Virus record (IMG/VR): IMGVR_UViG_3300025132_000006 | Span: 1-59,842 of that record | Strand: one strand, 5' to 3' | Length of the DNA stretch: 59,842 nucleotides | Source: a virus | Lineage: Duplodnaviria; Caudoviricetes | Part shown: one piece after another, positions 3,602 to 37,734 of the stretch | Numbering within the stretch: the stretch's first letter is position 1 | How the letters are laid out: each line of letters starts with the position of its first letter | Translations under genes and position numbers: made by a program | The notes under the pieces: model-generated | Database searches by the model: none | Told to the model about the DNA's origin: nothing | Seen by the model: the letters and a program-made list of their open reading frames with translations, nothing else

Positions 3602-6421
3602 ATGCCAAAGCAATCTTTAAAAGTAGGAAGCTTTCATAGCGGTCTAAATACTAAAGCTGACGCTAGAGATATAAAAGATGATGAGTTAGCTCTTTCTGAT
3701 AATATATCTGTAGATAAAGTAGGTAAAATAGTTATGGCAGGAAATTCTCCTGAGATAACTACTATTACTATAAATGCTTTGGGGGAAATTAATAAAGGAC
3801 ACGGTCTCTTTAGATTTAGTTCAGATTATAATGCTAGTGGTTCTTTTGTACCAACAGATTATATAATAGTTTGGGATGACGCAGAGGGAAAGTTTTATTG
3901 GTCGCCTGATGGAGGTAATTTTGCAGAGGCTATTGATTTATCTAGTACTTGGGGAAATTCTGAGAATTCGATACCTATTTTTTATTATGTAGATGGTGCT
4001 TTAAGGATTGTAGATTCTAGTTTTCCTGCTACTGCTAATCCATCAATTTGGTTTGGAGTTGTAGATAGACTTCTATTCCCAGATGCTACCCACCCTGATG
4101 CAAGTACTCCTGCTGATAATGACTTTTTACTCTCTGGTTGGAAAAAAGGTTTTTCTGAATTAAAAACACCTACCGCAGGTAAAATATCAACTACTATTCC
4201 AGCTAACTCAGCTGCCCTTGAAACTGATTCTGTCTATTGGCACGTTAGGAATATGAGAGATGAAACTGTTCAATTATATGATTTCCCTACGACTAATTTA
4301 ACTAGTGATTATTCTAACGAAAGTGTTTATAATTTATCTAAACCATATCAAAATGGATATGAAAATTGGCAAACAATTCATGGAATTAATGAAGGATATA
4401 AAGGTGGGACTGCTCATCAATTTGGAATTGCTCTATTTGAAGAAGATGATAAAGAATACTCTACAAATAGAAATTGGGTATTAAATGATTTTCCTTCGGC
4501 TAATACTGAAGATTTTAAATCTGGAAAGTCTGTATATTTAGCATTTAGATTGCCAACCCAATCTTCTAGAGAAACATGGCTTGGGAGTTATCAATTATTA
4601 CAATCTTCAAATTCATCTAGTTCAGCTACTATTAATATTTCAGATGCATCAATTATATTAAAAGATTCAGGAGCTTCTGATATGATTTCTTTTAAAATTG
4701 ATTCTACAAAATTTACAGACATTACAACACCTGTTGGTCAATGGCATATTGTTGAATTTCCTTATGATGATTATTATCATTTAACTAGAAGTGATACTAA
4801 TTTCTATATTGACCAATTTGTCTTATCAATGGATTATTCAATTGAGGTTGTTGGCACTACCCTTTCAACCTCTGGAGGTAATAGTAATAATAATGCGGGG
4901 TTTGTATTTTTAGAATTATCTGATTTAAGAATAGGTGATTCTGATTTAGTCGGAGTAGATACTGTTGGCAGGCATAAATTTTTTATGAGTCACACATATG
5001 ATGATAAAGAAAATGAAAGCTTGTTAAAAGACCTCGGTGAAATTGAATTAAGCAGAACAACTTCAGAGTATTTAATTGGAATTACTGCTTATCACAAAGA
5101 GCCTAGTGCTTCATTCAATCCTAGAATCACTGGTTCAAATCTTTATATAGAAGATGAAGGAGTTCCATATAGAATTGCTGAATTAAGATATTTAAGAGGT
5201 TTAAGGGGTTCGTGGGAACAAGAATTTCCATCATCTAGTAGATTTAGTATATTTGATACAAATAACGCTAAGAGTAATACGATTAAAAATAATGGACTTC
5301 CTTTATTAGAAAGTTATGAGGCTATGAATGGATATACTCCTGAAATAGAATCAATTACTGCTGATTTTAAAGCATCTACATTGTTAAATAGGAGAGTTTA
5401 CGCTGGGAATATAAAACAAAATGGTAAGATTTACGGTGATAGAATGATAAAGACCGTTACCAATAATTTTGATGCATTCCCATCCGTTGGTAGAGAAATA
5501 GATGTTGTTATAAATGATGGAGATGAAATTATAGCATTAGAAACATATGCTGATAGAATACTTCAATTTAAGAAAAATACTATGTATTTAATTAATGCTA
5601 CTAAATCAAGTGAATATTTAGAAGATACCTATCAAGGTAAAGGAATTGCAACTGATATGGCTGTTTCTAAGACAGATATGGGGATAACGTGGGCAAATAA
5701 GAATGGTTGTTATTTATATGATGGTCAAAAAGTATATAATATATCTGATGGATTAATAGATGACGATGAATGGTCTACTCATATAGGAATAGATACAGAT
5801 GTCATGTATTCTCCTTTAAATAATAAGATTATAGTTAGTGGTGGTACAAATGGTATAGATGTATTTGAATTTTCTTTACAAACTAAAGGATGGTCTAAAG
5901 CTAAAAGTAAAATTCAAGCAACGAAAACAAATTCTGTATTGGATGTAGATGATACAATAAAATATTTGACAACTGATAAAATATATAATTGGCTAGATAC
6001 TCCTTCTAGTGGGGTTATTCGTATTCTAACTAAAGATTTTGATTTTGGAAATCCTGCTCAGAGAAAGAAATGTTTTAAGTTTTATGTCACATATAAATCA
6101 AGTGCGGCATCAAATGTTATGGTTTATTATGGCACAAATGGACAAACTCTAACTGATGTTCAAACTGGGACTCCTCTTCCATGTGGAAAGCAAATGAAAG
6201 CTTCTAATTTTGCTGGAACAAGTACTAGTGGTTATTCAGTTACAAATGGATTAGCTACTACTGGAGGAGAATGGAAACAAGTAGAATTAAAACCATCAAC
6301 TTCTATTAATAATAAATATTCTGTTCAGTTACATTTTATTACTAAGGCATCTGAAACCACTCCATCTAGTTTTGAGATTAATGATATAACAATAATTTAT
6401 AGACCAAAACCACTTAAATAA
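3602..6421 (+). CDS. Tail nozzle/stabilisation protein (P22 gp10 / T7 gp12-like beta-propeller)
   Basis: N-terminal F.SGLNT..D.RDI...E motif typical of podovirus tail-tube-B proteins; beta-rich; C-terminal ILTKDFDFGNP..RK motif. Confidence 0.7.
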   Translation: MPKQSLKVGSFHSGLNTKADARDIKDDELALSDNISVDKVGKIVMAGNSPEITTITINALGEINKGHGLFRFSSDYNASGSFVPTDYIIVWDDAEGKFYWSPDGGNFAEAIDLSSTWGNSENSIPIFYYVDGALRIVDSSFPATANPSIWFGVVDRLLFPDATHPDASTPADNDFLLSGWKKGFSELKTPTAGKISTTIPANSAALETDSVYWHVRNMRDETVQLYDFPTTNLTSDYSNESVYNLSKPYQNGYENWQTIHGINEGYKGGTAHQFGIALFEEDDKEYSTNRNWVLNDFPSANTEDFKSGKSVYLAFRLPTQSSRETWLGSYQLLQSSNSSSSATINISDASIILKDSGASDMISFKIDSTKFTDITTPVGQWHIVEFPYDDYYHLTRSDTNFYIDQFVLSMDYSIEVVGTTLSTSGGNSNNNAGFVFLELSDLRIGDSDLVGVDTVGRHKFFMSHTYDDKENESLLKDLGEIELSRTTSEYLIGITAYHKEPSASFNPRITGSNLYIEDEGVPYRIAELRYLRGLRGSWEQEFPSSSRFSIFDTNNAKSNTIKNNGLPLLESYEAMNGYTPEIESITADFKASTLLNRRVYAGNIKQNGKIYGDRMIKTVTNNFDAFPSVGREIDVVINDGDEIIALETYADRILQFKKNTMYLINATKSSEYLEDTYQGKGIATDMAVSKTDMGITWANKNGCYLYDGQKVYNISDGLIDDDEWSTHIGIDTDVMYSPLNNKIIVSGGTNGIDVFEFSLQTKGWSKAKSKIQATKTNSVLDVDDTIKYLTTDKIYNWLDTPSSGVIRILTKDFDFGNPAQRKKCFKFYVTYKSSAASNVMVYYGTNGQTLTDVQTGTPLPCGKQMKASNFAGTSTSGYSVTNGLATTGGEWKQVELKPSTSINNKYSVQLHFITKASETTPSSFEINDITIIYRPKPLK

Positions 6422-9414
6422 TGTCTAAGAGAAGTCAAAGAAGAGCTAGGCATCAAAATGCAAGTCAAACAGGTATAGGAAGAGGTAATTTAGGTTCTTC
6501 TGATGGAAGAGTAGGCTCTCAAGAATTTAGAACTATAGCAGGTAAAGGTCTAGTCCATATGGTCAAAACTGAGACTGGATGGAAAGAAATGTCTAGTAGT
6601 CTTAGAGATACTACTAAGGGGAATACAACTGCTGATATATTAGCTGATTTAGTAGCTCCTGTTATAACTACTGCATCAAGTGGGGATGGAACTGGCACAA
6701 GTAATCATAGCGAGTTAGAAAGTCTAACTTCATCAGATGACCACACTCAATATGTTCATAACACTACTGTGAGAACTATAAGTGCTAATCATAATTTTAC
6801 AGGAAATCCAACATTTACAACTGGTACATTTACTGCTCCAGATATAAATGGGGGAACAATAGATGGTAGTACTATAGCTACTTCTAATATAACAGTAGGT
6901 AGTAGCAAGACATTAGATGTTCAAAATGGAACTTTAACATTAGGAGATAACCAAATAAGTGGAGATAAAGTAGAGGGAGGAACAATAGCAGCTACTACTA
7001 TTACTGCATTAACAACTGCAGGTATAACTGCTACTGCTAATATTGATATAGGAACTTTTGATTTAAGAGCTAATACACTTACTTCTGATATAGCAGATGG
7101 GACTTCTCCTCTTAATATAACTTCTACAACTGAAGTAACTAATTTAAATGCTGATTTGTGGGATGGGTATCAATTTAGTGACTATCTTAACCAAGCAGTT
7201 AAAACAGTTTCTACTCCTACATTTGCTTCAATAACAACTCCTACTATATTATCAGCTGGTGATATTACACTTAATCCAACAGGGAAAGATGTACTTCCGA
7301 ATAGCACTGTAGATATTGATTTAGGTGATTACAATAGAATGTGGAAAAGTTTATATGCTGCTGAACTTATTGTAGAAACATTAGTGGCTCAAGATGTGAT
7401 GGCTACTATTGGAGGTAGAATTATGGTAGCTCCGACTACTAAATTAATTTCAAATTTACAATCTAATGATACTGTAATAAATGTAGAACATAATAATATT
7501 AAAAATAAATATGTTATGTTAAAAACTGCTCCTTCAGGTGTTGCTCAAGTAGAGGTTATAAAAATAGAAAATTCTAATCCTACTTCGGTTACAGGTGGAT
7601 ATAGATATAATATACAATCAAGAAATTTAGATAATACAACTGCTAATGCTTGGCAAGAGGGAGATGCGGTATGTTCGTTAGGAGGCTCAGCTGGTGAAGG
7701 TTTTATAGATTTAACAAGTACATCTACTGTTCTTAATCACGCAGGTCCGACTATGGCTATATATTCTAGAACCGCAGCTACAAATTGGAATGATTTAAAA
7801 CCTACTGTTGCAGTCGGGCAATTGTCTAGTTTTGTTGATTATTCTAGTAATGATAAATTTGGAATCGCTATTGGAAATGATATTACATTAACTCCCACAA
7901 CTTCATTTAAGGGCTTAACTGCTGATAATACTAATGGCTTAAGAATGTTTAATACTCCTATTGAATTATATAATAGTACTGAAAAAAGAGTAAAAATAAC
8001 ATCTACAGGAACTGTGAAGATGGGAGAACATTTAGATAATACTGCGGGTAGTACAGAAAGTGCAAAATTCCATTGGGATGGTGCTGATTTAACTTTAACT
8101 GGTGCAATTACTGCTGATACAGGATATATAGGGGGAACATCAGGGTGGACAATATCATCTAGAAAATTGTATAACTCGTATCAAAATAATTATATAGGTC
8201 TTGTCCAACAAGGTTCTGCTAATGCAGATGTTGGAAGTCTTAGTGCTTTTTACGCTGGTGCTACATCAAGTACAGGTCAAAATGCAAAAATATCATTTGC
8301 TTCAGATGGAAAAATACGAGGCAATGGTATATATAGAAAGGATAATGTTGATTATCTTATAACGGCTTCAAGAATATTTGGTAATGGTAGTGATGGTGCT
8401 TTATCAACTAGTGGAACTATAAATTTAACTAGAGATAAGTATTATACATCTATTACTGTTGCGAATGGTCAAAATTTATATCTTAATCCACGAGGATTTA
8501 GAATATTTGTTAGAGACACTGTGACTCTTCTCGGAACTGGGAGACTTTATATTAGAAATAATGGAACAAATGGGGATAATGGAAGTCAAGGAGGTAATGA
8601 ATCTGGTGGAAGTGGAGGAAGCGGAGCAGGTATAGGTGGATTAGAAGGAAGTTTAAGAGGAGGAATTAATGGAGGAAATGGTGGAAATGGCGGAGGAGCT
8701 GGAATAGGTGCCGGAAATAGCGGGGGTTCAGGTAGTGCAGGTGCTAATGTTCCTGCCGTCAGTCCAGTTGTTAGAGAGTATTCCGTTTCTATTGGTAATG
8801 TTAATGATGGTGCAAAAGGAGGGGGTGGTCAAAATGGTGCTGCAGGCGCAGGGGGTACTGCAAATACACCAAATAATTCTAATACATCTTCTCAAGGTGC
8901 TATAAGTATTCAAAGTTCAGATTTAACCTTTATAATTGCAATGAGAGATATATTTGCCGTTGGAAATAATACTCCTTCTATTTATCCTGCCGCTGGTGCT
9001 TGCGGTGGAGGTGGTGGAGCAGGAGGTGGACCTGCTAGTAATGCATCTGGCGGGCAAGGTAAGTCTGGTGGCGGTGGAGGTCAAGGAGGAGGCTCAGGAG
9101 GTCACGTTATGTTATTAATGAGAGAATTTGTAGGGACACAAAGTCAATTATATTTAAGTGCAAATGGTGGTAATGGAGGTAATGGAGGTAGTCAAGGTAA
9201 TATAGGAAGTGGAGGAGCAGGGGGAAAAGGCGCAGGTGGTAATGGAGGCGATGGAGGATGTGTTACTGTTATATCTGGTCAAGATATTTCAGGTGCAACT
9301 ATAACTGTCACGAAAGGTTCAAAGGGGGCACCAGGCACCACAGGAAGCGCAGTAAATGAACCAGAGACTGCTTCTGATGGCTCAGATGGAACTATAATTA
9401 GAATTGAATGTTAG
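6421..9414 (+). CDS. Tail spike/fibre-like structural protein with glycine-rich C-terminal domain
   Basis: T/G/S/N-rich; FGNGSDG motif followed by GGNGGNGG-type tracts; located in the tail cluster. Confidence 0.65.
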   Translation: MSKRSQRRARHQNASQTGIGRGNLGSSDGRVGSQEFRTIAGKGLVHMVKTETGWKEMSSSLRDTTKGNTTADILADLVAPVITTASSGDGTGTSNHSELESLTSSDDHTQYVHNTTVRTISANHNFTGNPTFTTGTFTAPDINGGTIDGSTIATSNITVGSSKTLDVQNGTLTLGDNQISGDKVEGGTIAATTITALTTAGITATANIDIGTFDLRANTLTSDIADGTSPLNITSTTEVTNLNADLWDGYQFSDYLNQAVKTVSTPTFASITTPTILSAGDITLNPTGKDVLPNSTVDIDLGDYNRMWKSLYAAELIVETLVAQDVMATIGGRIMVAPTTKLISNLQSNDTVINVEHNNIKNKYVMLKTAPSGVAQVEVIKIENSNPTSVTGGYRYNIQSRNLDNTTANAWQEGDAVCSLGGSAGEGFIDLTSTSTVLNHAGPTMAIYSRTAATNWNDLKPTVAVGQLSSFVDYSSNDKFGIAIGNDITLTPTTSFKGLTADNTNGLRMFNTPIELYNSTEKRVKITSTGTVKMGEHLDNTAGSTESAKFHWDGADLTLTGAITADTGYIGGTSGWTISSRKLYNSYQNNYIGLVQQGSANADVGSLSAFYAGATSSTGQNAKISFASDGKIRGNGIYRKDNVDYLITASRIFGNGSDGALSTSGTINLTRDKYYTSITVANGQNLYLNPRGFRIFVRDTVTLLGTGRLYIRNNGTNGDNGSQGGNESGGSGGSGAGIGGLEGSLRGGINGGNGGNGGGAGIGAGNSGGSGSAGANVPAVSPVVREYSVSIGNVNDGAKGGGGQNGAAGAGGTANTPNNSNTSSQGAISIQSSDLTFIIAMRDIFAVGNNTPSIYPAAGACGGGGGAGGGPASNASGGQGKSGGGGGQGGGSGGHVMLLMREFVGTQSQLYLSANGGNGGNGGSQGNIGSGGAGGKGAGGNGGDGGCVTVISGQDISGATITVTKGSKGAPGTTGSAVNEPETASDGSDGTIIRIEC

Positions 9415-13247: not shown

Positions 13248-16200
13248 ATGTCAGATATAAATAGCCTATTAGACTCGTTACAACAATCTATTGACGAAGA
13301 TTATCGTCATTCTATAACTCCTAAACCTTCTACTACGAATAGAAGTCTTCACAAATCATTAGATAATTTACAACAAGAAGAACTTCAAGATAGAACATCA
13401 ATTCAAAATCAAAGACCAACAGATGCTCCAAAAGGAACATTTGGAAGTCAATTTATATGGGGTGTTGCTGAATCGGCTATGGTTGCACCTGGTCTATGGG
13501 AATCACTAGGTAAGCAAACTGGAATTGCTCCAAATATACAAGAAGGAGATATAAGAAAATCTTTAGGAGGAGTAAAATGGGATGATGCTACTCAATTAGG
13601 TAAGGTTGGTCATGTATTTGGCGCTGGTGTAGGTATGTTAGCTCCTTTTGGTCTTGCAGGTAAACTTGTTGGTGGAGTACTTAGAGTTGGTGGGAAAGTA
13701 ATTCAAGGAGGACAAGCTTTAATGAAGTCCACTCCTTTCTTAGCAAGAGCCGCTTCAAAAGAATTAATAGAACGAGTTGGTAAAGTTACAGGTAAATCAG
13801 CTACTACCTTAAGTAAAGAAAATGCTAAAACTATAGTCAATTTAGCAGAAGATGTTATATCTAAACCATCAGTTTTAAATAAAATTAGAGGTCTTAAGCA
13901 TCATGATGAAATAGTCAAAGGACTAGGTCAAATTGAAATGAGAAATGTTATTAAGAATTCTATTCCTGATATTGCTGATGATGCAGTAGATGATATTTCT
14001 AGAATTGCAATTGAGGCAGTAAGTCATCATTCTGTTAAAAATGCACACGCTATACTTGAGTCAGCGGCAAGAGGCTTAATGAGTTTAGGTGGGAAAAGGC
14101 AAACTGGATTACCAACAGATTTATTAGCTGCTTATAGTTACGATGCACTACTTGGTGGTGTATTTGGATTTGGTAAATACGCTGCTGAACAATATTCTAA
14201 ACAAGCATGGCAAGATGAGACAGGTGTTCTTGAAGCAGGAAAATTTATACAAGATACAGATTGGTGGGAAGGTGCTAATCATATGTTAGAAGAAGGTGCT
14301 TGGTTAGGACTTTTAGGACCTGTTAGATATATAGCTGGTGGTACTGGTTCTCCATTGATAACTGTCCCTAGATTCTGGAATAAGAATCCCGGAAAAGTAA
14401 ACAAAATAATTGGCGGATTAGCTAAAAATTGGAAAAAAATTGATAATATAACTCCAAATGAAGCTAGGGCTACTATGCAAATGATGGATTCTGTGAGTAA
14501 TGGTGCAATAAGGCATTTTATAGATAAAGGTAAGATGCCAATTGTTAGTAAAGCTATGGAAAAAAATCCTTCTGCTTGGTGGCAATATTTTACAAAAAAT
14601 GGAGATGAAGCGATAGGTGCTTTAAATGAAATAAGAAGTACATTTGTTAGGAATGCACCTAGAATACTAGCAGGAGAGACTTTAAAAGATTTTGCTTATA
14701 GTTTACCTAGAATGGGAATGGGTGCATTTACGATGAATCTTCCTGTAATTCATGAGACATGGAAAAATGCTAAAGGAATGCCTACTGGAGAAAGATTTAA
14801 ATGGACTGCTGAAAATTCATTTGGAGAAACATGGGCTGATATAGGTGCTAATATAACAGTTGCTATGTTAATGACTCGTTCTGGGAGAGCTATACGAAGA
14901 TTTGATAAACCTGCATCTGGCTCTGCTAAAGACACTGGTATGCAATTAGGAATAAGTCGTGGTGAAATGCAAACTCATTTAACAGGAGCTGATAGATATA
15001 TAAAAGAAGTTCAAGCTGGTTTAGAAACTATGGGTCTTGCACCTTCTCAGCGACATCAATTAGCAATGAGATATTCACAACATAATGAATTTCCAGGTGA
15101 GTATGGTAATAGATTATCACAAGCAATTACTGAAACAGATGCTACATTTAAAGGAATAAATGAAAAAATAAACGAAAGAAGCTTAACTAAAGAAGAAATA
15201 TCTAAACTAGATATAGAAAAAATAGAATCTGAAGGTAGGCATATAGATATACAAGAAGCTTATAAGAAAGCTGCTAAAGAAAGAAATCTTAGTTCTGAAG
15301 AGATTGCTCAATGGAATAAAGATTTAGAAATTGCTAAAGCAGTTGAAAGATTTATGGAGTCTGAGTTAATAACTGGTGAGATTACTCATAAACCAATGAG
15401 TCCTAACGAAGCTAGAGAGTATGTTAAAGATTTAGCTAATACAAAAATTGATGGAGTTTCATTAACATCTGAAAACGTAATGCCTTTATTAAGAAAAGCT
15501 AGAAATCATGCAGTCGCTAAAGCTACAAAAGAATCTTATAATGAAATTATAATGACTTATAAAGATGTTGCTGAAGCTTTAGGATTAGAAGTTGTTTATG
15601 ATAAACAAAGAGGCGTTATATATGCACCTGAATCTTTGCAATTACCAATGCTTGGAAGAGTAGACGTAGCTAATCAAAAAAGCAGAGATAGAAATGCTAT
15701 GACTGAATCGTTTAATCATATACATAAATTGGGAATTCAATTAGGATGGATAAAGCCTCAAAAGAAAGTCTCATCAATGACAGCTGAAAATTTAACAGGA
15801 GAAGGTTATGATAAAGCTGTTAATATTTTTTCTGAAAGATTATTAAATCTTCATAAATATACTTATGGGCATGAGCATAATAGAGAAAGTTTAGAAGGTG
15901 GTCATAGTTGGAATGATTTTATGATGACATCTGATACTTGGCATTATGCTTATGGAGCAGGTAAAAGTTATTTACAAAGAGAGAATGTTAAATCTTTTCT
16001 ACGAGGTGATTATAAGAATGTAGATAGTCATTTAGGAGGAGATGAAATATCAAAATTTCATAGAGAATTAGAAAGTAGAATTGGTTCAAACTGGGTAGAA
16101 ATAAAAGACTTAGATAAGGTTACTAGCGATAAAAATGAGCAAAATGATATAAGAGCTTTTATTACAAACTTAAATAAAATTTATAGACTTGGCACTCCGT

Positions 16201-19200
16201 CTGAAAGAATAGAATCAAAAACAAAAGAGATAGAAGGAGTTGCTGCTTCTGAATTAAAACAAAAAACAGAAGAGTTGTTTGGTAATGCTTTTTCAGATAA
16301 AGATGTTTTAGGTAGGCTAGAAAGTGAAATACTACAAGAGGCAGTAGAAAGAATAGACCTAAAAAATACAGACAGAACTTATACTAAGTCAACTGTTTCT
16401 TTATTGACTAACCCAGAGTTTGCTGGTGGCACTATTAATTCATTAAGAAGTATTAAAGATATTCATGCATTTCTTGACTCTATGGCTAAAAATGGTAAGC
16501 CTACTGAAGAAGTTGATATGTTAAAGCAATTTTATGAAAATTTACATAGAGCTATAGAAAAATCTGAAAGTGGAGTTATAAAATTTAACAAAGAAACTTT
16601 ACCTGTTGATGGTCTTGAAAATAATTTATATCAGGCATTAAGAGAAGCAGAGCATTATTCAAGGCAAAGTTCATTAGATGCTCTTATATATGGTTCTCAA
16701 GAAATATCCAATTCTTTAAATAAATTAGTATTTGATACAACAAAAGAGATAGCAACAATCGTTAATACAGATACAAATATGCCTGAGCAAAATAGAAAAG
16801 AACTATTTGATACATTATTTAAAACTCAAAGACTTGGTCAATCTTTAATAGACCAAATTTCTATTGCAAAACGAGAAGGAAATTTAGTTGCCTTAAATAG
16901 CTTAAATAAAAGAAAAGTAGATTTAGATAAAAGTTTAACAGAGCTTACAAGTAATATTCAAAGTAAAACTGCTCACGAAAGTTATCAACAAGTATTAGCC
17001 GATATGGCTAGGGTTCAAGGTGAAATAAATTCAAAGCCATTAAATCATAGTGAAATTGAAACTATTTTTAATGAAAGATTGCAATATGAAATGAAATCTT
17101 CTAAAGCTCCTTCTATAGAACCTCCGAATACTATATCTTTAAATCAATTTGAATCTAAATATTTTGTAAAAATGAGTGACTACATTTTAATGGAAAGAGC
17201 ATTAAATGAACCAATACAAACTGGTAATAGTGCTATAGATTTATTAATAACTGCAAAAAGAAATATTAAAGTTAATCTCGGTACAGAGAGTGAGTCTATG
17301 GTTGCAGATGCTATGAGAATATTAGATAAGGGTATAGAAAACTTAAAAAATTTACAAGGTAAAAAAGTTTTAGAGCCTAAAGAAATGGTTGATTATATTC
17401 GTAAACCTATGATGGAGTACATAAAAACTCAATTATTTTCTGCTCAAAAACTTGGAATACTTGATAATGAAGCATTTGCAAAAAGATTATTAGAAGTTGA
17501 TAGTGATTTAAATCAGATTATGACTCAAGCATTTTCAACAAAACAGTTAAGAAGTCTTGAATTTCATAAAGGAGGATTCCTTTTAACAAAAGAAACTGTT
17601 CCTAATACAGATAAAACTGGGTTTTTAGCAGTTGAAAAACAATTAGGCATTGAAGGTAGAATGTTTTTATTAAAAAATAGTGGAGTAGATGCTGAAGGCA
17701 ATAGATTTCAAAGAGTTAATAAAGAAATGCGTGAAAATATTGAACTTGCGTTATCTAGTGATGTTGGAGCGACTGTAGTAAATAGAGACGCAGAAGCAGA
17801 TTTTTATAGAACTCAAGACCCTAAAATTATTGAAAAAGATGCAGACTTAGTTTCGAATAAAAGAAAACTTCAATTAATAACAATAGATGAGGGTGTTAAT
17901 TTATTAGTTGAAAATTCTCCAGAAGTAATTGCAAATATTAATGCTAATTATACATGGGATGCCTCATCTAAAGGAAAAAATAGTGAGATAATGCAAACAC
18001 TAGATAGAATTTTAGTGGATGGAAATAACGCAGATAACTTAGCTTTAACAGAGAAATTTAGAAATCCAAATATGAAGGGTGAAGATATAGCTAGTGCAAT
18101 ATTATTAACTAGAGCTATTTCTGATAGTAAAAGTCTTGTTTCTGACTTTTTAAAGAATACTGCAAATGATAAATTATTAAAAGCTGAGTGGAAGCGTCTA
18201 AAGATGTTTGAACATAGAAGTGGCTTTACTGGAACTAAGGATAATGTAAAATTTGTATATGAATTATTAAGAGAAACTGTTCGTGAGGGTATGTTTAAAC
18301 ACCAACACAAGCTTTCTTTAGAAAAATTAGAACAAGTATTTGGCAAGAACGGTGAAACACCTTTGGATTTAGTTGTTATAAATGATGAAACTGGTCCTGT
18401 TGAGGTAAATGGTAAGATGAATTATAATCCATTTGATTATAAACAAGGAGTTGCTGCTAGATTAAAAAAACAACTTCAAGAGCAGCTTGATTTAAAATCA
18501 ATTACCCAAGAACAGTTAAATGAGACTATGGATAAACTAGCAAAAGATAAAAGCGAAGTAGATAGTGTCACATATTTAAATAAAGATACATTTCAAGCTC
18601 TTATGACTTTTCTTGGAGTCAAAGACCAAATGATAGAATATAGACCTGATGGAAGTGCTATAATTAGAGCAGGTGCTATTAAACCAGTAATTACTCATAG
18701 TGAAATTTCAAAAGACGGTAGTTTGTTAGAATTTATTTTAAAAACTTCTTTTCAATATAGTCCGACTGTTGAAGGGATAATGCCTAAAAATGTAAATGGA
18801 ATAGCTTTTAAGAGTGGTGCAAAGAAATTTAAGACTAGACAAGGTAAAGGGGAAATGGTAGATAGTTATATGGCTCCTGATAGAGTTCCTGGAGATATTT
18901 TAAAGAATGCTAGTTTAGATAGAAAATTAGATATGACTTTTGAAAATGTTGATATATCAAATAGCGTTGCTAGTATTCCTTTATCTTCTATAAACCTTAA
19001 ACAAGCCTCTAGTGAACATACTGGCTTAGTAGCTGCTAATACTGGTGTTCATTTTAATAGAAGAGGTATGGAAGGAATGAGGAAATGGACAGGTATTGAT
19101 AGAAAGATGAGCGATTTTGGTAGAACTCAGCAAGAAGTTTGGTTAAATCCATATAAAAGAACTGCTGTTGCAAAAGAATTATTTGGGTATAGTCAAGAGA

Positions 19201-22200
19201 CTGGCGACCCTTTTATGCTAAATACTGGTCTTGACTTTATATTAGAAAATAGAGGTGTGCTTGTTCAAGATTGGATTCAACCAGTTATTGAAAGAAGTTT
19301 AATAAGCCATCATTTAAGTGGTGGGAATATAACTGCTAGAAAAATTTATGAATCTGAGACTGCAGTAATGACTCCAGATTCAGGTGGACTTCAATTACCA
19401 TTTAGAACAAAATTAAATGGGACTAGAGCTGTTCAAAGAATTTTTGGAGGTTCAAGAATATCAACATTCTTAGGAAACAAGCTCGTAAAGTTTGATGGTG
19501 AAGTAAATAGACATAATGACCAAGCTAGTGATACAGCCGCTAATATTGTTAAGTTTTCAGATGGTTTAGAAGGTATATTAGTTCATGGTTTAAATAATAA
19601 AAGCAAGGCAAGTAAAGAAGCTACTTTATATGTAGATGGTTATATGGTTACTCCTGAAGGTAAAATATATGATTTAAGCACAGGCATGAATAAAGAAGTT
19701 ACCTTACCAGAAGCTCAAAGAGTTGAATATATAAATAAACAAAAAGAAGCAAATGAATTAGGTAATCTTTTAAAAGAAAAACTTAATTTAAAAGAAAATG
19801 GAACTGCTACAATGTCTCAAGCTATGGGAGAAGCTGAGAGTGTTAGAAATTCTTTGAAAAAAGGTGATAATAGAGGCATATGGATGGCTTCTATAAGTGT
19901 AAGACAACCTAGAAACCAAGCTGGTGATATGATTGTTGAAAAATTGGAAGGGTTTACTAGAGGTCAAGGCAACGTAAAAGAAACAAATAGTATAGATGCA
20001 ATTCAAACTGCTGATGCTGATTTTGATTTAGATAAAATTACAACGTACACTGCTTCTAATAAAGAAGTATGGGGAGAAGTTGCTAGATTAGCTGGGCATA
20101 CAACATTTAATTCAGATGCTGATATACAGAATTACATAGAAAGAGAATTTTCATCTTTTGATAGCTTTAGAGACCATAATAACAATATTCAAGAAACTGC
20201 TTTTGTTCGCTCTAGGTTTGTAAAACTACATCAAACAATGACTTATTTAAAAAATATGCTTGGTGGGAATAGTATTGCAAATTTTAGATACGGTAAAGAG
20301 TTATACTCTATAAAATTAAAACAAGAAACAAGTGAGTTTTTAAATACAGAAGCAATTTTATCTCAAATGGCTAAAATGTATATAGATGTATATAATAATA
20401 CTCCTCGAATTAATTCTAATTTTGTTAACCATGCAATGAGAAAATTATTTTTTGGCGAGAATGGAATGTTCCAAGTTAAAGTTATAGATAAAGGTAAAGA
20501 ATTAGATAGTGATTTACAACTATGGCATAAAGATGGTACAAATAATCCTTATGGAGATATAAATACTAATTTTATAGACGTTATTCAAGCAATAGAAGGT
20601 AGGTTTATTAGTCCACTTGGTCAATATTTACAATATAACAGAGGAGTTACTCAATTAGATAGTAATTTTCAAAGGTCTTCTAGTATTCAAGATTTTTCTG
20701 GTGCTTATGAAAGAACATTATATTCATTTAATGACAGAGTAAAATGGAATGGGACTGAGTCTAAAACAGATATATTAGATTTAACACCTGGTTTAAAGGC
20801 TGCTCAAGCTTATTTTAGAGACTCTTCTAATCCATATGATATTGGAATGAGAGAAATGAATAATCTTAATGCTAAAAAACATAAGGAAATAAATATTTTT
20901 GAAGGCGATATGGGTAAATTAGTTACTGCTATAGAAGAAGGGGTTATCGATACTGGAGATTATCAACAACAATATAGAAATGCAGTCAATAATGCATATG
21001 ATAAGTTTATAAAGAATCAATTTAATATGGCTGAAGTAACTGCTTTATTAAGAAGACAATATGGAGTAGAGTCGCAAATGAATAGTTTAGAAATGAGATT
21101 TTCTAGAATGAACATTAAAGAGACTCCTGAATATATGGCTTTAGCAAAAAAACAAGAACGACTTTCAGAAGCAGTTGAGGGATTAAGACAAGTTATGGGA
21201 GCTGGGAGAGATTTTGAAATAGCTAAAGGAAATGAATTTTTTGATGAAATAAGATTAAAAAAGAATTTTAAGGAAAAGGAATATGTAAATACATCTAAAG
21301 CACCTATTGTAGTTAGGTCTGGAGATGGAAGCATGAAAGAAATTATTCGTGGAGGAGAAAGAAATCAACAGCGAATAGGGAAGAAAGATAGAGTATTTAA
21401 GCATGGTAGGAGATGGGAGTTTGCATCTGAAACTCAAATAGGGGCAGATATAAATAATATAGCCTTTGGAATGTTGCCATCTTATAATAGAGGTGGTGAT
21501 ACTTCAATAATGAGTGAAGGTCAATTTAAAAAATATCAAGATTGGAGAACTAGGCTTGAAATTAATTTAAGAGAAATTGAGAATAGTTTAACAGATAAAA
21601 GAGGGAGACAAGTAACTATGTTAACCTCTCAAGAAAACTCAATGATAACTGCTCAAAAAATGAGAGAATTGAATAATTTCATTCAAGAATTTAATTTTAA
21701 TGATGGTACAAATATACTTGATAAGTGGGCAATCGTTCATGCATTAATGCAACCAAAGGTAGATAAAAATGTAATGTTAGCAAAGCCAGTTACTGATGGA
21801 AAAGGCGTGAAAGGAATGTCTTTTGGAAATAAAGTATATATGCATAATTATGGTAGAACAGAAAAACTACTATGGGATTATTTAAATGAAGTAAGAAGTA
21901 CACATCACGAAAATTTTAAAGACTCAGGTATTAGTTCAGTAGAAGCAGCTGAGTTTATGAGAGCTATTATACAAAATCAAAAACAAGCATTATTAATACA
22001 TGAAAGACCTTATGGAGATATTAGAATGAATGTTGATGGCTTTTGGACTGAACCATCTAGAATTACTGAAAGCAACCATTTTAAACAAACTAATTTACAT
22101 GCAGAAGTTCATGAATTAGCTAGGTCTGCTAACGAACAAGTAAAAATGGCAGCTAATACTTTAATAAGATATTCAAGAGGAGAAGGTGGATTAGTAGACC

Positions 22201-22427
22201 CAATAACATTATATAAAGCTCAAAGAACTCTTGAAACAGAAGGTAATATACCAGCTGGTGAAACATTTATGATGGTTCAAGCAAAAGAACCAAATGTGGC
22301 TTTTGGGAATATGAACCTAGAAGGAATAAAAAATAATATTAATTATAATAGAAGAACTGGGACAGAAGGTGTTTTAAAAGAAAAACCATCTCAGTACTTA
22401 GAAGATGCGATAAGGTGTTTACAATGA
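13248..22427 (+). CDS. Giant virion protein carrying a two-barrel (double-psi beta-barrel) DNA-dependent RNA polymerase
   Basis: RQP at aa 2219 (nt 19902) and DADFDLDK at aa 2256 (nt 20013) match the beta'-type R-x-P...DxDxD arrangement. Upstream VDSVTY / IKP / LKTS / FKSGAKK resemble the second-barrel motifs of crAss-type RNAPs. The N-terminal third is G/A-rich, like ejection proteins. Confidence 0.8.
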   Translation: MSDINSLLDSLQQSIDEDYRHSITPKPSTTNRSLHKSLDNLQQEELQDRTSIQNQRPTDAPKGTFGSQFIWGVAESAMVAPGLWESLGKQTGIAPNIQEGDIRKSLGGVKWDDATQLGKVGHVFGAGVGMLAPFGLAGKLVGGVLRVGGKVIQGGQALMKSTPFLARAASKELIERVGKVTGKSATTLSKENAKTIVNLAEDVISKPSVLNKIRGLKHHDEIVKGLGQIEMRNVIKNSIPDIADDAVDDISRIAIEAVSHHSVKNAHAILESAARGLMSLGGKRQTGLPTDLLAAYSYDALLGGVFGFGKYAAEQYSKQAWQDETGVLEAGKFIQDTDWWEGANHMLEEGAWLGLLGPVRYIAGGTGSPLITVPRFWNKNPGKVNKIIGGLAKNWKKIDNITPNEARATMQMMDSVSNGAIRHFIDKGKMPIVSKAMEKNPSAWWQYFTKNGDEAIGALNEIRSTFVRNAPRILAGETLKDFAYSLPRMGMGAFTMNLPVIHETWKNAKGMPTGERFKWTAENSFGETWADIGANITVAMLMTRSGRAIRRFDKPASGSAKDTGMQLGISRGEMQTHLTGADRYIKEVQAGLETMGLAPSQRHQLAMRYSQHNEFPGEYGNRLSQAITETDATFKGINEKINERSLTKEEISKLDIEKIESEGRHIDIQEAYKKAAKERNLSSEEIAQWNKDLEIAKAVERFMESELITGEITHKPMSPNEAREYVKDLANTKIDGVSLTSENVMPLLRKARNHAVAKATKESYNEIIMTYKDVAEALGLEVVYDKQRGVIYAPESLQLPMLGRVDVANQKSRDRNAMTESFNHIHKLGIQLGWIKPQKKVSSMTAENLTGEGYDKAVNIFSERLLNLHKYTYGHEHNRESLEGGHSWNDFMMTSDTWHYAYGAGKSYLQRENVKSFLRGDYKNVDSHLGGDEISKFHRELESRIGSNWVEIKDLDKVTSDKNEQNDIRAFITNLNKIYRLGTPSERIESKTKEIEGVAASELKQKTEELFGNAFSDKDVLGRLESEILQEAVERIDLKNTDRTYTKSTVSLLTNPEFAGGTINSLRSIKDIHAFLDSMAKNGKPTEEVDMLKQFYENLHRAIEKSESGVIKFNKETLPVDGLENNLYQALREAEHYSRQSSLDALIYGSQEISNSLNKLVFDTTKEIATIVNTDTNMPEQNRKELFDTLFKTQRLGQSLIDQISIAKREGNLVALNSLNKRKVDLDKSLTELTSNIQSKTAHESYQQVLADMARVQGEINSKPLNHSEIETIFNERLQYEMKSSKAPSIEPPNTISLNQFESKYFVKMSDYILMERALNEPIQTGNSAIDLLITAKRNIKVNLGTESESMVADAMRILDKGIENLKNLQGKKVLEPKEMVDYIRKPMMEYIKTQLFSAQKLGILDNEAFAKRLLEVDSDLNQIMTQAFSTKQLRSLEFHKGGFLLTKETVPNTDKTGFLAVEKQLGIEGRMFLLKNSGVDAEGNRFQRVNKEMRENIELALSSDVGATVVNRDAEADFYRTQDPKIIEKDADLVSNKRKLQLITIDEGVNLLVENSPEVIANINANYTWDASSKGKNSEIMQTLDRILVDGNNADNLALTEKFRNPNMKGEDIASAILLTRAISDSKSLVSDFLKNTANDKLLKAEWKRLKMFEHRSGFTGTKDNVKFVYELLRETVREGMFKHQHKLSLEKLEQVFGKNGETPLDLVVINDETGPVEVNGKMNYNPFDYKQGVAARLKKQLQEQLDLKSITQEQLNETMDKLAKDKSEVDSVTYLNKDTFQALMTFLGVKDQMIEYRPDGSAIIRAGAIKPVITHSEISKDGSLLEFILKTSFQYSPTVEGIMPKNVNGIAFKSGAKKFKTRQGKGEMVDSYMAPDRVPGDILKNASLDRKLDMTFENVDISNSVASIPLSSINLKQASSEHTGLVAANTGVHFNRRGMEGMRKWTGIDRKMSDFGRTQQEVWLNPYKRTAVAKELFGYSQETGDPFMLNTGLDFILENRGVLVQDWIQPVIERSLISHHLSGGNITARKIYESETAVMTPDSGGLQLPFRTKLNGTRAVQRIFGGSRISTFLGNKLVKFDGEVNRHNDQASDTAANIVKFSDGLEGILVHGLNNKSKASKEATLYVDGYMVTPEGKIYDLSTGMNKEVTLPEAQRVEYINKQKEANELGNLLKEKLNLKENGTATMSQAMGEAESVRNSLKKGDNRGIWMASISVRQPRNQAGDMIVEKLEGFTRGQGNVKETNSIDAIQTADADFDLDKITTYTASNKEVWGEVARLAGHTTFNSDADIQNYIEREFSSFDSFRDHNNNIQETAFVRSRFVKLHQTMTYLKNMLGGNSIANFRYGKELYSIKLKQETSEFLNTEAILSQMAKMYIDVYNNTPRINSNFVNHAMRKLFFGENGMFQVKVIDKGKELDSDLQLWHKDGTNNPYGDINTNFIDVIQAIEGRFISPLGQYLQYNRGVTQLDSNFQRSSSIQDFSGAYERTLYSFNDRVKWNGTESKTDILDLTPGLKAAQAYFRDSSNPYDIGMREMNNLNAKKHKEINIFEGDMGKLVTAIEEGVIDTGDYQQQYRNAVNNAYDKFIKNQFNMAEVTALLRRQYGVESQMNSLEMRFSRMNIKETPEYMALAKKQERLSEAVEGLRQVMGAGRDFEIAKGNEFFDEIRLKKNFKEKEYVNTSKAPIVVRSGDGSMKEIIRGGERNQQRIGKKDRVFKHGRRWEFASETQIGADINNIAFGMLPSYNRGGDTSIMSEGQFKKYQDWRTRLEINLREIENSLTDKRGRQVTMLTSQENSMITAQKMRELNNFIQEFNFNDGTNILDKWAIVHALMQPKVDKNVMLAKPVTDGKGVKGMSFGNKVYMHNYGRTEKLLWDYLNEVRSTHHENFKDSGISSVEAAEFMRAIIQNQKQALLIHERPYGDIRMNVDGFWTEPSRITESNHFKQTNLHAEVHELARSANEQVKMAANTLIRYSRGEGGLVDPITLYKAQRTLETEGNIPAGETFMMVQAKEPNVAFGNMNLEGIKNNINYNRRTGTEGVLKEKPSQYLEDAIRCLQ

Positions 22428-34907: not shown

Positions 34908-35666
34908 TTATAAGAAACGCACTTTCTTACCTCTTGATTGATAATTATATATATCTTCAAGAAGAGTCATATACGTTTCAGTATCTGGACAACGAACTAA
35001 TTTGGTACTTTGATATTCAACTTTCTGCATCATTGTATCATGATTATAGTCCTCTACTGTTTCTATAATCTTAAGTAATGCATTAATAAATCCTCTTTGT
35101 TTATACCATTTAAACCAATTAGAGAACTCATTAATTTGTTCAATGATTGCATTAACTTCGTTGACTGTTCTTAAGAACTCAAGACCACCTGTCTTAAATG
35201 CTATTTGAGAACCTTTAGTATTCCCCATAAATAACATTATCAATGAGTTATGACTCCATCCACTTCTTCGCTTAATACCACAATACATTTTATAGTTCTT
35301 GTGACCTAAGTTAGCATAGTGTTTAGCGTAATCATCATAATTCCATCTGTTTTGTTGTTGTATAGAAGCCACATTCCACGGCTTTAACCTTTCATGTTCA
35401 TCAACAACATAATGAATAGACTCACCAAGTTCTTTACAAGCAGTGAATCTGTACTGCCCATCATATACAGGATGCTTACCATTTGGATACTCATCATCTT
35501 TATAAGCTGGGTTAAGTGGTAATACAATAACTGGATTAACATCAGTTAAATTACCTATAGCTTTAATATTGTTAACTATCTCAGCTAAGTGATTAGGCTT
35601 TATGTCTCTATTCCAGTCCTCAAGAGTAAATAGACCATAATCCTTTGTTTTACGTATTCTAGGCAT
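34908..35666 (-). CDS. ParB/Srx-like N-terminal domain protein
   Basis: NR.I...H...I, PVIV, V.DGQYRF.AC..L and N..W...D motifs; likely start MPRIRK after GGGAGG. Confidence 0.75.
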   Translation of the reverse strand: MPRIRKTKDYGLFTLEDWNRDIKPNHLAEIVNNIKAIGNLTDVNPVIVLPLNPAYKDDEYPNGKHPVYDGQYRFTACKELGESIHYVVDEHERLKPWNVASIQQQNRWNYDDYAKHYANLGHKNYKMYCGIKRRSGWSHNSLIMLFMGNTKGSQIAFKTGGLEFLRTVNEVNAIIEQINEFSNWFKWYKQRGFINALLKIIETVEDYNHDTMMQKVEYQSTKLVRCPDTETYMTLLEDIYNYQSRGKKVRFL

Positions 35667-35847: not shown

Positions 35848-36016
35848 TTTCTTCCCTTTCCTTGTCAAATACAAGTCTTGCAGTATTCTTTGAACCATTT
35901 ACTGCTTGAAGATATACCATAGTATACTCACACAGTCCATTAGCGTCAAGAAATGATTTAGGTAGTGTTAACCTGCCTCTATCATCTATTCTGCATCTAG
36001 TTATATACATACTCAT
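35822..36016 (-). CDS. AbrB/MraZ-type DNA-binding protein
   Basis: RIDDRGRLTLPKSF signature. Confidence 0.75.
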   Translation of the reverse strand: MSMYITRCRIDDRGRLTLPKSFLDANGLCEYTMVYLQAVNGSKNTARLVFDKEREENEQKDKTI

Positions 36017-36029
36017 TTATTACCTCTTT

Positions 36030-36107
36030 CTACTCTTTTAATTGATAATGATTAAATATTCCCCATGCAACTAAGCATGTACCTACAATAATCCATGATT
36101 CTATCAT
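36030..36107 (-). CDS. Possible 25-aa single-TM micropeptide
   Basis: AGGAG RBS; MIESWIIVGTCLVAWGIFNHYQLKE. Confidence 0.4.
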   Translation of the reverse strand: MIESWIIVGTCLVAWGIFNHYQLKE

Positions 36108-36134
36108 TTATTTACTCTCCTATTTTAAAAATTT

Positions 36135-36220
36135 AGAGGCAACTACGAAGTAAAGGTTACTCCCATCGTATTAGTAACTTCAGCTCGAGCTTGGGAACTA
36201 GACTCGTTATCATTGCCTCT
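36135..36220 (-). ncRNA. Structured RNA candidate E (three-way junction, possible loop-loop kiss)
   Basis: agaggcaa/ttgcctct closing stem; hairpins cgagt/gctcg and gttact/agtaac; loops contain complementary CCCA and UGGG. Confidence 0.55.
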
Positions 36221-36229
36221 TTAAAGTTA

Positions 36230-36619
36230 GAATTGCACCTGTCCCCGTTGGTTAGATATACCCGTTACGGTCTTAATATAACAATGCACCCTTTAGCACG
36301 GTGTTTACATTGCGTAGGATAACTTATAGTAAGTGTTAGCTAAACAAATCTATAAGCGATTATAATCCTCCGATACATGGCTCTTCAGCTTCTTCGGTAA
36401 TAGAGAATATATATTATACGACCTAACGATAGCTTAACATTGCTTGTATGAACCACATCTCTTTAGGAGACCCTGTTACACATACTACAGTCACTACAAC
36501 TGTTATCGTTCTTATGCATACCAATATATTAGTGGCAATAGCATAAATAGGAAGGTACTAAAGATAGTTCTTATAGTACTCTACTATATTAAGATGGTTA
36601 CACATATCAAGTGCAATTC
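36230..36619 (-). ncRNA. Large (~390 nt) multi-domain structured RNA candidate F, class unknown
   Basis: 12-bp terminal helix, second long-range 11-bp helix and at least five internal domains (see findings). No credible minus-strand ORF. Confidence 0.7.
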
Positions 36620-36630
36620 ATTAAAATTTA

Positions 36631-36764
36631 TAGGCAGAATAAGGCGATGTAATTGCGACCACTTTTACATTCTTATATTATGGTTACCTTGCTCATATAT
36701 GACTGTTGGACTCTATATCTATGTTTTACCATGAATGCCACCAGAATTTCATAAGTACTGCCTA
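36631..36764 (-). ncRNA. Structured RNA candidate G (same TAGGCAG/CTGCCTA closing stem as candidate A)
   Basis: taggcag at 36631 and ctgccta at 36758; inner hairpins atgaa/ttcat and atgtaa/ttacat. Confidence 0.5.
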
Positions 36765-36889
36765 AATACTCTTGTACTATACAAATAATAAATATTATCT
36801 CTTGCTCTGGTTTAGATTAAGTTGAAGCTCTTACAACACACAAGAGGTAAATTGAGAGTTTATCCTATACTACTCACAAGGTTTTAAAA

Positions 36890-37111
36890 TCAATAGTCCA
36901 GTACTAACAAAGGAACACCTGGATGCCTACGCAGATGATTGGAAATCTGCTTCATCGTATCATCGTAATCACAGGTTATCTGCACTACATAGTTGTCCTT
37001 TAACATGAATCTAGTACCTATCATACCATTGTCAAATGTAAGACTACGAATAGCCTGTACATTGCCCAGATTAATGGTGTAAGTATGTGATTTAAGTAGA
37101 ATATTGGTCAT
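36890..37111 (-). CDS. Small protein, FlbD/LytTR-like pattern
   Basis: AGGAGG RBS; INL..V..I...T.F.L.D...V......D...K pattern. Confidence 0.6.
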   Translation of the reverse strand: MTNILLKSHTYTINLGNVQAIRSLTFDNGMIGTRFMLKDNYVVQITCDYDDTMKQISNHLRRHPGVPLLVLDY

Positions 37112-37235: not shown

Positions 37236-37265
37236 GGACAGAACAGCCATAAGACTGCTCTGCCC
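37236..37265 (-). terminator. Hairpin/terminator downstream of the first early gene
   Basis: gggcagagcagtc-ttat-ggctgttctgtcc (13 bp with G-U pairs on the minus strand) followed by ttgttatt. Confidence 0.6.
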
Positions 37266-37345: not shown

Positions 37346-37600
37346 TTATTTCTTGTCTCCTCCTACCATCTCTAGTAAGTGACCGACAACTGCTGTCAAC
37401 TCTTCAATTGGTTGAGATATGTTAGCATTACTATTCACACCTGCCCATAGAGCGGCGACGTCTTCAAATGAACCTTGACTCGCGGCTTTGGCTAGCATGA
37501 TAGCAGATAGAGTATCCATACTCTTCTTATCTACACTCTTTAGACCATTGAGGTTGATACGTGTTGGGAAGTCTCTGCCTCCCTGTATTCTTAAACTCAT
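37346..37600 (-). CDS. Hypothetical protein, first gene of the leftward arm
   Basis: Strong GGAGG RBS. Confidence 0.7.
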   Translation of the reverse strand: MSLRIQGGRDFPTRINLNGLKSVDKKSMDTLSAIMLAKAASQGSFEDVAALWAGVNSNANISQPIEELTAVVGHLLEMVGGDKK

Positions 37601-37734
37601 GTTTCCTCCGTTAATTAATCATCAAAAAGTAAATTCTTAAAAATCAATTACAACGTAAATCCTAATAAGGAAAAACCCTTACTAGGGGGTGTACAAGATA
37701 AATAAGAGGGAGTATCAAAATCCTACAATTTTTC

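Follow-up and report, generated by a model that had tools for sequence, protein, structure and literature searches.

What does the 390-nt interval at positions 36230-36619 on the minus strand of the virus record IMGVR_UViG_3300025132_000006 (Duplodnaviria; Caudoviricetes) encode? The window analysed here is the whole stretch of DNA, 59,842 bp of viral sequence in a record that is complete and bounded by direct terminal repeats, and the interval lies between a 73-aa open reading frame (ORF; 36890-37111) and a 25-codon mini-ORF (36030-36107). Apart from one 33-codon stretch starting with TTG, the minus strand between these two ORFs contains no ORF of at least 30 aa. A preliminary description, made from the letters alone, proposed that the interval specifies a large non-coding phage RNA that is new and falls into no recognised class. 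We show here that it has homologues in other phages, in which the predicted fold covaries, and that it is almost certainly a real structured RNA gene of about 390 nt (nt 1-390, counted downwards from 36619).

Homologues and boundaries of the RNA

Five homologues were identified in other viral contigs (L004, G001, G002, L070 and L071), giving, with the window, six copies that are 387-435 nt long and 73-88% identical. The RNA is present once in each of them, and in the window a nhmmer profile of the six copies matched only 36230-36619. The closest homologue, L004, is 87.5% identical over 408 nt; this similarity begins 1 nt before 36619 and ends at 36230, and the rest of the 5-kb flank is unmatched. 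The homology boundaries coincide with the ends first proposed, which are exact to the base. In every differing context, the similarity between copies stops at the terminal helix, P1.

The copies were found with short patterns: a 19-mer from the 5' end of the RNA retrieved a single viral contig, L004, a 17-mer from an invariant 3' block retrieved G001 and G002, and a degenerate pattern of the P6 core retrieved L070 and L071. A 17-mer from the 5' end matched nine stretches and gave no new copy, six of these (L063-L068) being chance matches. Of 22 stretches matching an 18-mer from the P7 region, 21 were coding sequence for acidic peptides and were rejected, as were 10 unrelated chance matches among the 11 stretches of the viral collection that carried the two terminal 9-mers at the right spacing, the other being L004. 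A metagenome scan returned the L004 contig again and one chance match in a bacterial gene, and a genome scan with one pattern found no prokaryotic or prophage copy, its single match being a 21-22-nt chance similarity inside a coding region of a metagenome-assembled genome. No further copy was present in the 16 loci retrieved through a conserved 54-aa neighbouring protein. The RNA was found in none of the full records of 15 related phages; many of these are fragments, and its absence is firm only for the four that are at least 90% complete.

Consensus fold and covariation

RNAalifold, applied to the six-sequence alignment, yielded 100 pairs in 19 helices. Standard pairs made up 97.0% of the 599 pair cells (87.3% in shuffles), and 32 of the 100 pairs were compensated by two-sided changes, a number reached by none of 500 shuffles (mean 17.2, standard deviation 2.7). 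The compensated pairs thus exceed the controls, as expected of a structured non-coding RNA. In a second control, which preserves relatedness, the 3' partners were slid by 1-3 columns; 33.9-43.3% of the cells then paired, and 2-9 pairs were compensated. Since this control keeps the relatedness of the sequences, and many independent compensations are found in long-range helices, a chance origin of the covariation is very unlikely. Most of the covarying pairs (27 of 32) are internal, in helices other than P1.

The folding energies distinguish the two strands. The minus strand of the 390 nt folds at -105.1 kcal/mol (z -3.11, with none of 100 dinucleotide shuffles as good), versus -84.9 kcal/mol for the plus strand (z -1.18, 11 of 100 as good). 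Across all six copies the sense z values range from -2.3 to -4.5, and the sense fold is better than the antisense fold by 10-35 kcal/mol in every copy. Plus-strand mismatches had been said to become G-U pairs on the minus strand, and the consensus pairs bear this out with 48 G-U cells to one A-C cell, a count that leans towards the minus strand because the structure was predicted on that strand.

A protein or small-peptide gene can be ruled out, since no reading frame is conserved among the six copies, each of which has at least five stops in all six frames. The longest antisense open stretch of the window (61 codons) is not intact in any of the other five copies, being split over frames in L004, L071 and G001 and interrupted by stops in L070, G001 and G002.

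A search of the whole window with the 4227 models of Rfam 15 gave no match at the gathering score. This set includes ROOL, GOLLD, OLE, raiA, HEARO, IMES, RNase P, tmRNA and 6S, as well as group I and II introns and self-cleaving ribozymes. At E<=10, over 35900-37000, only two matches were obtained, neither of them meaningful: a snoRNA model that reaches 20.6 bits (its cut-off is 50) and overlaps no more than the first 38 nt of the RNA, and DUF805b (12.2 bits), outside the element. At the homologous loci Rfam matched nothing over the element. ARAGORN found neither a tRNA nor a tmRNA in the window, and no gene at loci L002, L003, L004, L054, L057, L058, L070 and L071. Transfer-messenger RNA is ruled out, as no tmRNA model matched even at E<=10, and the same holds for the RNase P models; the preliminary description had likewise seen neither. 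Our literature search found no description of the 390-nt RNA, which, on these comparisons, is a previously uncatalogued family outside every Rfam family. None of the sequence-based findings that the preliminary description named as refuting it was obtained, and its core proposal is supported. The alignments further indicate that a discrete, strand-specific and pseudoknotted RNA fold is under purifying selection at this locus.

Architecture of the RNA

The terminal clamp P1 (helix 1) pairs 36608-36619 with 36230-36241. It comprises 13 pairs in the alignment, five of them compensated, and 97% of its cells are paired. The bases of the proposed gatatg/tatatc helix are invariant in all six copies, so that covariation gives no support for this helix. 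On the 3' side, next to the clamp, nt 359-378 (36242-36261) form a near-invariant block within an asymmetric internal loop between P1 and the following helices. This block is identical in four of the six copies, with one substitution each in L070 and L071; it is more conserved than pairing requires, which points to a contact or an active site. The long-range helix P3 (helix 3, tcttaatatag/ttatattaaga) joins nt 26-35 (36585-36594) to nt 340-349 (36271-36280), 320 nt away, through nine pairs, five of which are compensated.

P3 encloses hairpin 1 (nt 42-66; 36554-36578), which has a CUAAAG/CUUUAG stem of variable sequence, and the conserved core (36426-36546; helices 5-12), consisting of the P5 hairpin (nt 74-108) and the three-stem P6 domain (nt 111-194), one of whose hairpins pairs UCUC with GAGA below a CUAAA loop. 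Over the core, the window and L004 share 97% identity, and the conservation of the core and of the 3' internal loop exceeds the needs of pairing. A search of unpaired columns revealed a 7-bp pairing, kept in all six copies, of the P5 hairpin loop (nt 90-96; 36524-36530) with the junction at nt 208-214 (36406-36412); both end columns of this pairing change in a compensating manner, and it is therefore interpreted as a pseudoknot.

Three further domains follow. P7 (nt 223-250; 36370-36397; helices 13 and 14) has a CCGA/UCGG stem, an inner 3-bp stem and a GAAG cap; two of the three inner pairs have changed on both sides, with the loop unchanged. P8 (nt 251-304; 36316-36369) is a variable peripheral domain of three stacked stems ending in a UAGCU loop. 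Its architecture is kept in all six copies, although most pairs of copies are only 40-58% identical over it, and the partly self-complementary UAGCU loop is kept in five of the six. P9 (nt 307-339; 36281-36313; helices 16 and 17) consists of GCAAUG/CAUUGU and CACC/GGUG stems and a loop bearing CUAAAG. The 3' strand of hairpin 1 is complementary to this loop in all six copies, over six columns of which three are variable, and in G001 there is a matching change on both partners; we regard this possible contact as a lead only.

The helices named in the preliminary description are, gatatg/tatatc apart, all confirmed by the comparison, and all but two of these are present in the consensus. Besides the terminal helix and P3, these are ttatgc/gcataa (seven pairs, one covarying), aacgata/tatcgtt (six pairs, invariant or with one-sided changes only), acagtt/gactgt (six pairs, one-sided changes only), gtatg/catac (4+4 pairs, 2+3 covarying), tctc/gaga (five pairs, one covarying), aggat/atcct (five pairs, three covarying), gcaatgt/gcattgt (six pairs, invariant) and cacc/ggtg, the inner stem of P9 (helix 17; five pairs, four of them compensated). 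The alignment consensus lacks the gtacta/tagtac hairpin and the gcttatag/ctataagt stem, but each of them forms in all six sequences folded singly; hairpin 1 and P8 cannot be aligned, yet they adopt the same shapes in the six single folds.

In G001, P8 carries an extra 45 nt (L057:1770-1792) with a 9-bp hairpin and a T-run, which the terminator scan calls; this may be a terminator-like insert inside the RNA.

Exchange of the RNA between phages

The relationships of the RNA copies disagree with those of the phages that carry them. The large terminases of L004, G001, G002 and L070 are 92-95% identical to one another, that of L071 is 64-66% identical to them, and that of the window only 31%. The RNA of the window is, however, 87.7% identical to that of L004, and L071 shares 84.2% with G002 and 83.1% with L070, whereas pairs within the L004 clade share 73-79%. 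The similarities of the RNA are thus at variance with the terminase backbone, which implies that the RNA has been exchanged between distant phages; it moves from one lineage to another as a single unit, with P1 as its boundary. The identity of P8 also depends on the partner (56% between the window and L004, 89% between the window and L070, 91% between G002 and L071), which indicates that this peripheral domain has recombined between copies.

The nearest relatives of the window, L002 and L003, have a ParB-like protein 88% identical to that of the window and the same flanking genes. In a blastn comparison of the window with L003, the match stops at 36695 and resumes at 36138, so that 36139-36694 is replaced. 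The slot in L003 (4480-5160; likewise 615-1295 in L002) is occupied by an unrelated, G+C-richer non-coding stretch of about 680 nt, which folds at -202.7 kcal/mol in the sense orientation (z -3.06) and at -153.1 kcal/mol in the antisense (z -1.30). This stretch had no Rfam match, and nhmmer, a comparison of sequence made with no structure-aware search beside it, found no similarity to the 390-nt RNA. It may be a second large RNA of no known kind. The block replaced in L002 and L003 consists of the RNA with the 75 nt upstream and a hairpin and T-run downstream, as would be expected of a self-contained gene. The fixed slot, the replacement in L002 and L003 and the absence from all 15 related records together mark the RNA as an accessory, exchangeable cassette.

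Position of the RNA in the genome

The window contains two divergent gene blocks that meet near 37600-37690. The plus-strand block includes a small-terminase-like gene, the large terminase, the portal and the major head genes, and the minus-strand block has small ORFs followed by genes for a ParB-like protein, a Cas4-like exonuclease and a DnaB-like helicase. In each of the six loci, 1.3-2.6 kb separate the RNA from the start of the divergent small-terminase-like gene. The RNA comes after one or two small ORFs that open the replication-gene operon, and has the same sense as this operon. This is presumed to be the early operon, and synthesis of the RNA early in infection is likewise presumed, from the sense that it shares with the operon (which runs from the divergent region, near 37600-37690, to the helicase gene).

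In the window, about 90 nt of structured sequence with a T-run come between the RNA and the mini-ORF; in L004 the RNA is followed by about 220 nt and a 129-aa ORF. The ORFs downstream of the RNA in G001, G002, L070 and L071 are not all related. As the downstream genes differ between loci, the RNA does not depend on any one regulated gene; the neighbouring proteins all lack a family assignment, and they gave no functional lead. The downstream element of the window (36127-36229, minus strand), which reaches into the segment replaced in the nearest relatives, has an 8-bp stem (36213-36220/36135-36142) enclosing about 70 nt, followed by the T-run. It is possibly a terminator or a second small RNA; the terminator scan does not call it, its loop being too large for the scan. 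The 75 nt upstream of the RNA (36620-36694, minus strand), also within the replaced segment, are a possible promoter region, in which a -10-like box, its end 7 nt from P1, was seen by eye. This box is not among the calls of the promoter scan, and such boxes are common in AT-rich DNA. Further upstream, after the 84-aa first ORF of the operon, there is a strong terminator-like hairpin (37236-37265, minus strand; 13 pairs, seven of them G-C), which places the RNA beyond a likely early stop signal.

Possible roles: trans-acting RNA or leader

A fold that closes on itself, is bounded by a clamp, does not depend on the downstream gene, is dispensable and can be swapped favours a gene product over a regulatory leader. 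We accordingly lean, in what is an evenly balanced judgement, towards a free-standing RNA that would act in trans rather than in cis. Under this model, the RNA would form a stable particle acting during infection, probably early. It could be released either by transcription from a start of its own immediately before P1, or by cutting from the operon transcript, at P1 or, in the two phages that have one, beside the preceding tRNA-like gene. In the fold itself, the P1 clamp (12-13 bp) joins the ends, and P3 with the junction carries the highly conserved core of P5, P6, P7 and P9, at least one pseudoknot and the swappable P8. The model would place the working surface in the invariant core and the equally invariant 3' internal loop, for the binding of a host or phage factor or for catalysis, and the shuffled P8, with its UAGCU loop, would be a contact with a partner or with another copy of the RNA, as in ROOL and GOLLD-type RNAs.

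Several observations weigh against this explanation. The transcript, its ends and its stability are here predictions from the DNA sequence. The covariation was scored on only six sequences, four of them from one phage clade, with a structure derived from the same six sequences and a shuffle control that ignores relatedness. In G001, G002, L070 and L071 the next ORF begins about 20-55 nt after P1, and the terminator scan calls none after the RNA at the five loci other than the window; the short gap and the lack of a called terminator fit an excised RNA and a co-transcribed leader equally well. At none of the six loci does the promoter scan call a site just upstream of P1, and the sole sense promoter-like site common to the six lies inside the RNA (nt 10-37; 36583-36610 in the window, minus strand). 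This site reads TTGATA (CTGATA in L070), 16 nt, TATAGT; its hexamers are otherwise invariant and its spacer covaries with the 3' strand of P3. Its conservation could reflect a promoter acting at the DNA level to make a 5'-shortened transcript and, if it fires, that transcript would lack the 5' strands of P1-P3. That the RNA associates with itself by way of the UAGCU loop is pure conjecture, and the loop is absent from G001.

Contigs of run X8 cover 36244-36566 in the element and 35161-35559 in the ParB-like gene, and a contig of run X12 covers 35411-35640. The RNA-Seq label of both runs is a guess, and as these contigs show neither strand, ends nor level, no conclusion on expression is drawn from them.

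The alternative that fares best is a cis-acting leader of the early or replication operon, never released, whose nascent fold would act on the transcribing polymerase, for instance by processive antitermination in the manner of the HK022 put RNA, or on the stability or translation of the downstream mRNA. The RNA does lie in the operon sense near the operon head at all six loci, and the close ORFs at four of these, with no terminator called, are what a leader would predict. A general effect on transcription would need no particular downstream gene, in keeping with the differing genes found there, and the different folded RNA in the same slot of L002 and L003 could be an analogous module. However, known antitermination RNAs are 70-120 nt long, as compared with 390 nt, a closed clamp, a pseudoknot and a shuffled domain in the present case, and the complete or near-complete relatives without the RNA indicate that the architecture of the operon is independent of it. 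Furthermore, in the window and L004 a long structured segment ending in a T-run precedes the next ORF, and the window RNA follows two ORFs and the terminator-like hairpin at 37236-37265 rather than the operon promoter directly. We consider a leader unlikely, if still deserving of attention.

A small non-autonomous mobile element, with P1 as its terminal inverted repeats and a fold that is incidental, would account for homology that ends within one base of 12-bp inverted termini, for transfer between phages whose large terminases are only 31% identical and for the sporadic distribution. Such an element is improbable, since the RNA is single-copy, in the same slot and orientation at all six loci, and none of the six junctions has a target-site duplication. 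A repeat bound by a transposase does not explain covarying pairs that lie overwhelmingly outside P1, the asymmetry of G-U over A-C points to selection on the transcript of one strand, and the scan with the terminal 9-mers described above found only L004 and chance matches.

We attach equally little probability to a replication element, either a structured primer RNA similar to ColE1 RNA II or a signal for initiation on single-stranded DNA. The operon of ParB-like, exonuclease and DnaB-like helicase genes would suit such a role, as would the G-rich invariant stretch near the 3' end of the RNA, and, as G-T wobbles are tolerated in single-stranded DNA, the asymmetry of the pairs is compatible with a DNA fold. 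Against this, the RNA is exchanged alone, without an initiator gene, and complete relatives do without it; an origin would not be expected to have a pseudoknotted fold of 390 nt and a shuffled domain, and iterons or an AT-rich unwinding block were not noticed on reading, no repeat search having been run. Finally, a chance fold in an AT-rich spacer, or the remnant of a decayed gene, has a negligible probability: the region is AT-rich and the window z of -3.1 is not decisive by itself, but six copies remain 73-88% identical amid flanks that can no longer be aligned, no frame is conserved, and no shuffle matches their number of compensated pairs.

As a more far-reaching and less probable reading, we tentatively suggest that the RNA represents a new class of large ornate phage RNA, a ribozyme or a self-assembling particle, carried as an exchangeable cassette in an 'RNA slot' at the head of the early operon. 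Different phages of this marine group would then plug different RNAs into the slot, the 390-nt RNA in six of them and the folded 680-nt stretch in L002 and L003. In that case, the specificity for partners would lie in the shuffled P8, as might be expected if the phages were in an arms race with competing phages or with the defences of the host.

Other elements around the RNA and the phage genome

In two of the six loci, G002 and L070, P1 is preceded at a distance of 8-15 nt by a tRNA-like gene of 70 nt, with CAU in its anticodon loop (L058:1421-1490 for G002; L070:6440-6510). The Rfam scores of 24.7 and 30.1 bits, respectively, are below the cut-offs, and ARAGORN calls neither gene; these are tRNAs of an unusual kind or else mimics of tRNA. 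Immediately before the tRNA-like gene, G002 and L070 share a conserved block of about 85 nt (L058:1338-1420; L070 ~6355-6437), closed by an 8-bp long-range helix, which is possibly another small RNA. The promoter-like sequence TGGACA, 16 nt, AATAAT at 6410-6437 of L070 could drive both the tRNA-like gene and the large RNA. G002 alone has a further element of about 100 nt (L058:1187-1283), closed by a 12-bp helix with G-U pairs on the sense strand; taken with the tRNA-like gene and the shared block, this suggests that several RNA genes are clustered in G002.

L004 and G001 have a conserved stretch of about 35 nt in common, at a distance of 140-165 nt on the upstream side of the RNA (L004:5275-5322; L057:1330-1375). 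It gives a weak match to the alpha-proteobacterial tmRNA model (16.4 bits, E 0.42), and has GG and GC doublets with what we take to be the spacing of -24/-12 promoters. The window also has an 8-codon Trp-rich mini-ORF, MKFWWHSW (36726-36752, minus strand), within 60 nt that share 83% identity with L003. A comparable mini-ORF of L003, rich in Trp and Tyr, is likewise found just upstream of the RNA slot, although the RNAs differ. The 25-codon mini-ORF downstream of the RNA (36030-36107, minus strand) is hydrophobic, has a good ribosome-binding site and is conserved in L003 (5186-5263); it probably encodes a small membrane peptide.

The phage itself is remote from any described phage. Its large terminase is at most 25% identical to that of any listed GenBank phage, and those of L004 and the window together reach at most about 27% identity to listed cultured phages, so that no cultured relative can be named. 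A blastn search in distant mode with 36000-36900 found no match among GenBank phages. The DNA of the phage is present in marine metagenome runs, two of which (X1, perhaps the source, and X2) contain half or more of its words, and the G+C content around the RNA locus is about 32%. A 3059-aa ORF on the plus strand (13248-22427) had no PHROG match, nor did the neighbouring ORFs of 939, 997, 1004 and 1073 aa.

Relation to known RNAs and significance

The closest known systems in concept would be ROOL and GOLLD, which occur in phages, often beside tRNA genes. ROOL is about 580 nt and GOLLD about 800 nt long, and their hosts are of the Firmicutes type. Like them, the present RNA is a large, multi-domain, pseudoknotted non-coding RNA carried sporadically by phages, with a function that is not established, and a tRNA-like gene adjoins it in two of six loci. 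It differs in being smaller and in coming from uncultured marine phages of about 32% G+C, and it matches neither Rfam model even at E<=10; the comparison with these RNAs in the preliminary description was conceptual only, and the RNA belongs to neither family. ROOL and GOLLD are reported to form homo-oligomeric complexes, and OLE is also reported to form an assembly (PMC12286853).

The likeness to other RNAs is more limited. Like the HK022 put RNA and other processive-antitermination RNAs, the present RNA is folded, is in the operon sense near the start of a long early operon and is independent of the downstream gene, but it is several times larger, has a terminal clamp, is dispensable in complete relatives and, in the window, does not directly follow the promoter region; only its position and orientation would be compatible with a role in antitermination. 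With tmRNA and RNase P RNA it shares a similar length (350-400 nt) and ends paired in a terminal helix, but not their signatures: ARAGORN calls no tmRNA, and the Rfam models of both fail to match at the relaxed threshold. A catalogue of over 10,000 csRNAs (PMC10690425) gives lengths of 29 to 151 bases for its IMG/VR candidates, which, like the present RNA, were drawn from intergenic regions of viral contigs with evidence from covariation. With those lengths, the 390-nt unit is not among them whole, although pieces of it might be.

We rate the RNA as a new family within the loose kind of large ornate phage RNAs of unknown function, to which its behaviour as a cassette is an unusual addition. 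Large, intricately folded and conserved bacterial or phage RNAs (above about 300 nt) are rare, and the 390-nt RNA is a new orphan of that sort. To our knowledge, almost all characterised bacterial and phage RNAs of that size with intricate folds are ribozymes or the cores of ribonucleoproteins, and the orphans ROOL, GOLLD, OLE and raiA turned out to form unexpected assemblies. With its defined ends, covarying structure, pseudoknot and compact size, the RNA is suited to cryo-electron microscopy. The pattern seen here, in which a fixed slot, horizontal exchange and a recombining domain are combined with a non-homologous folded RNA in the closest relatives, is unusual, and suggests that phages trade large RNAs as they do anti-defence genes. 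If this is true, it would provide a testable route to the function of ornate phage RNAs in general.

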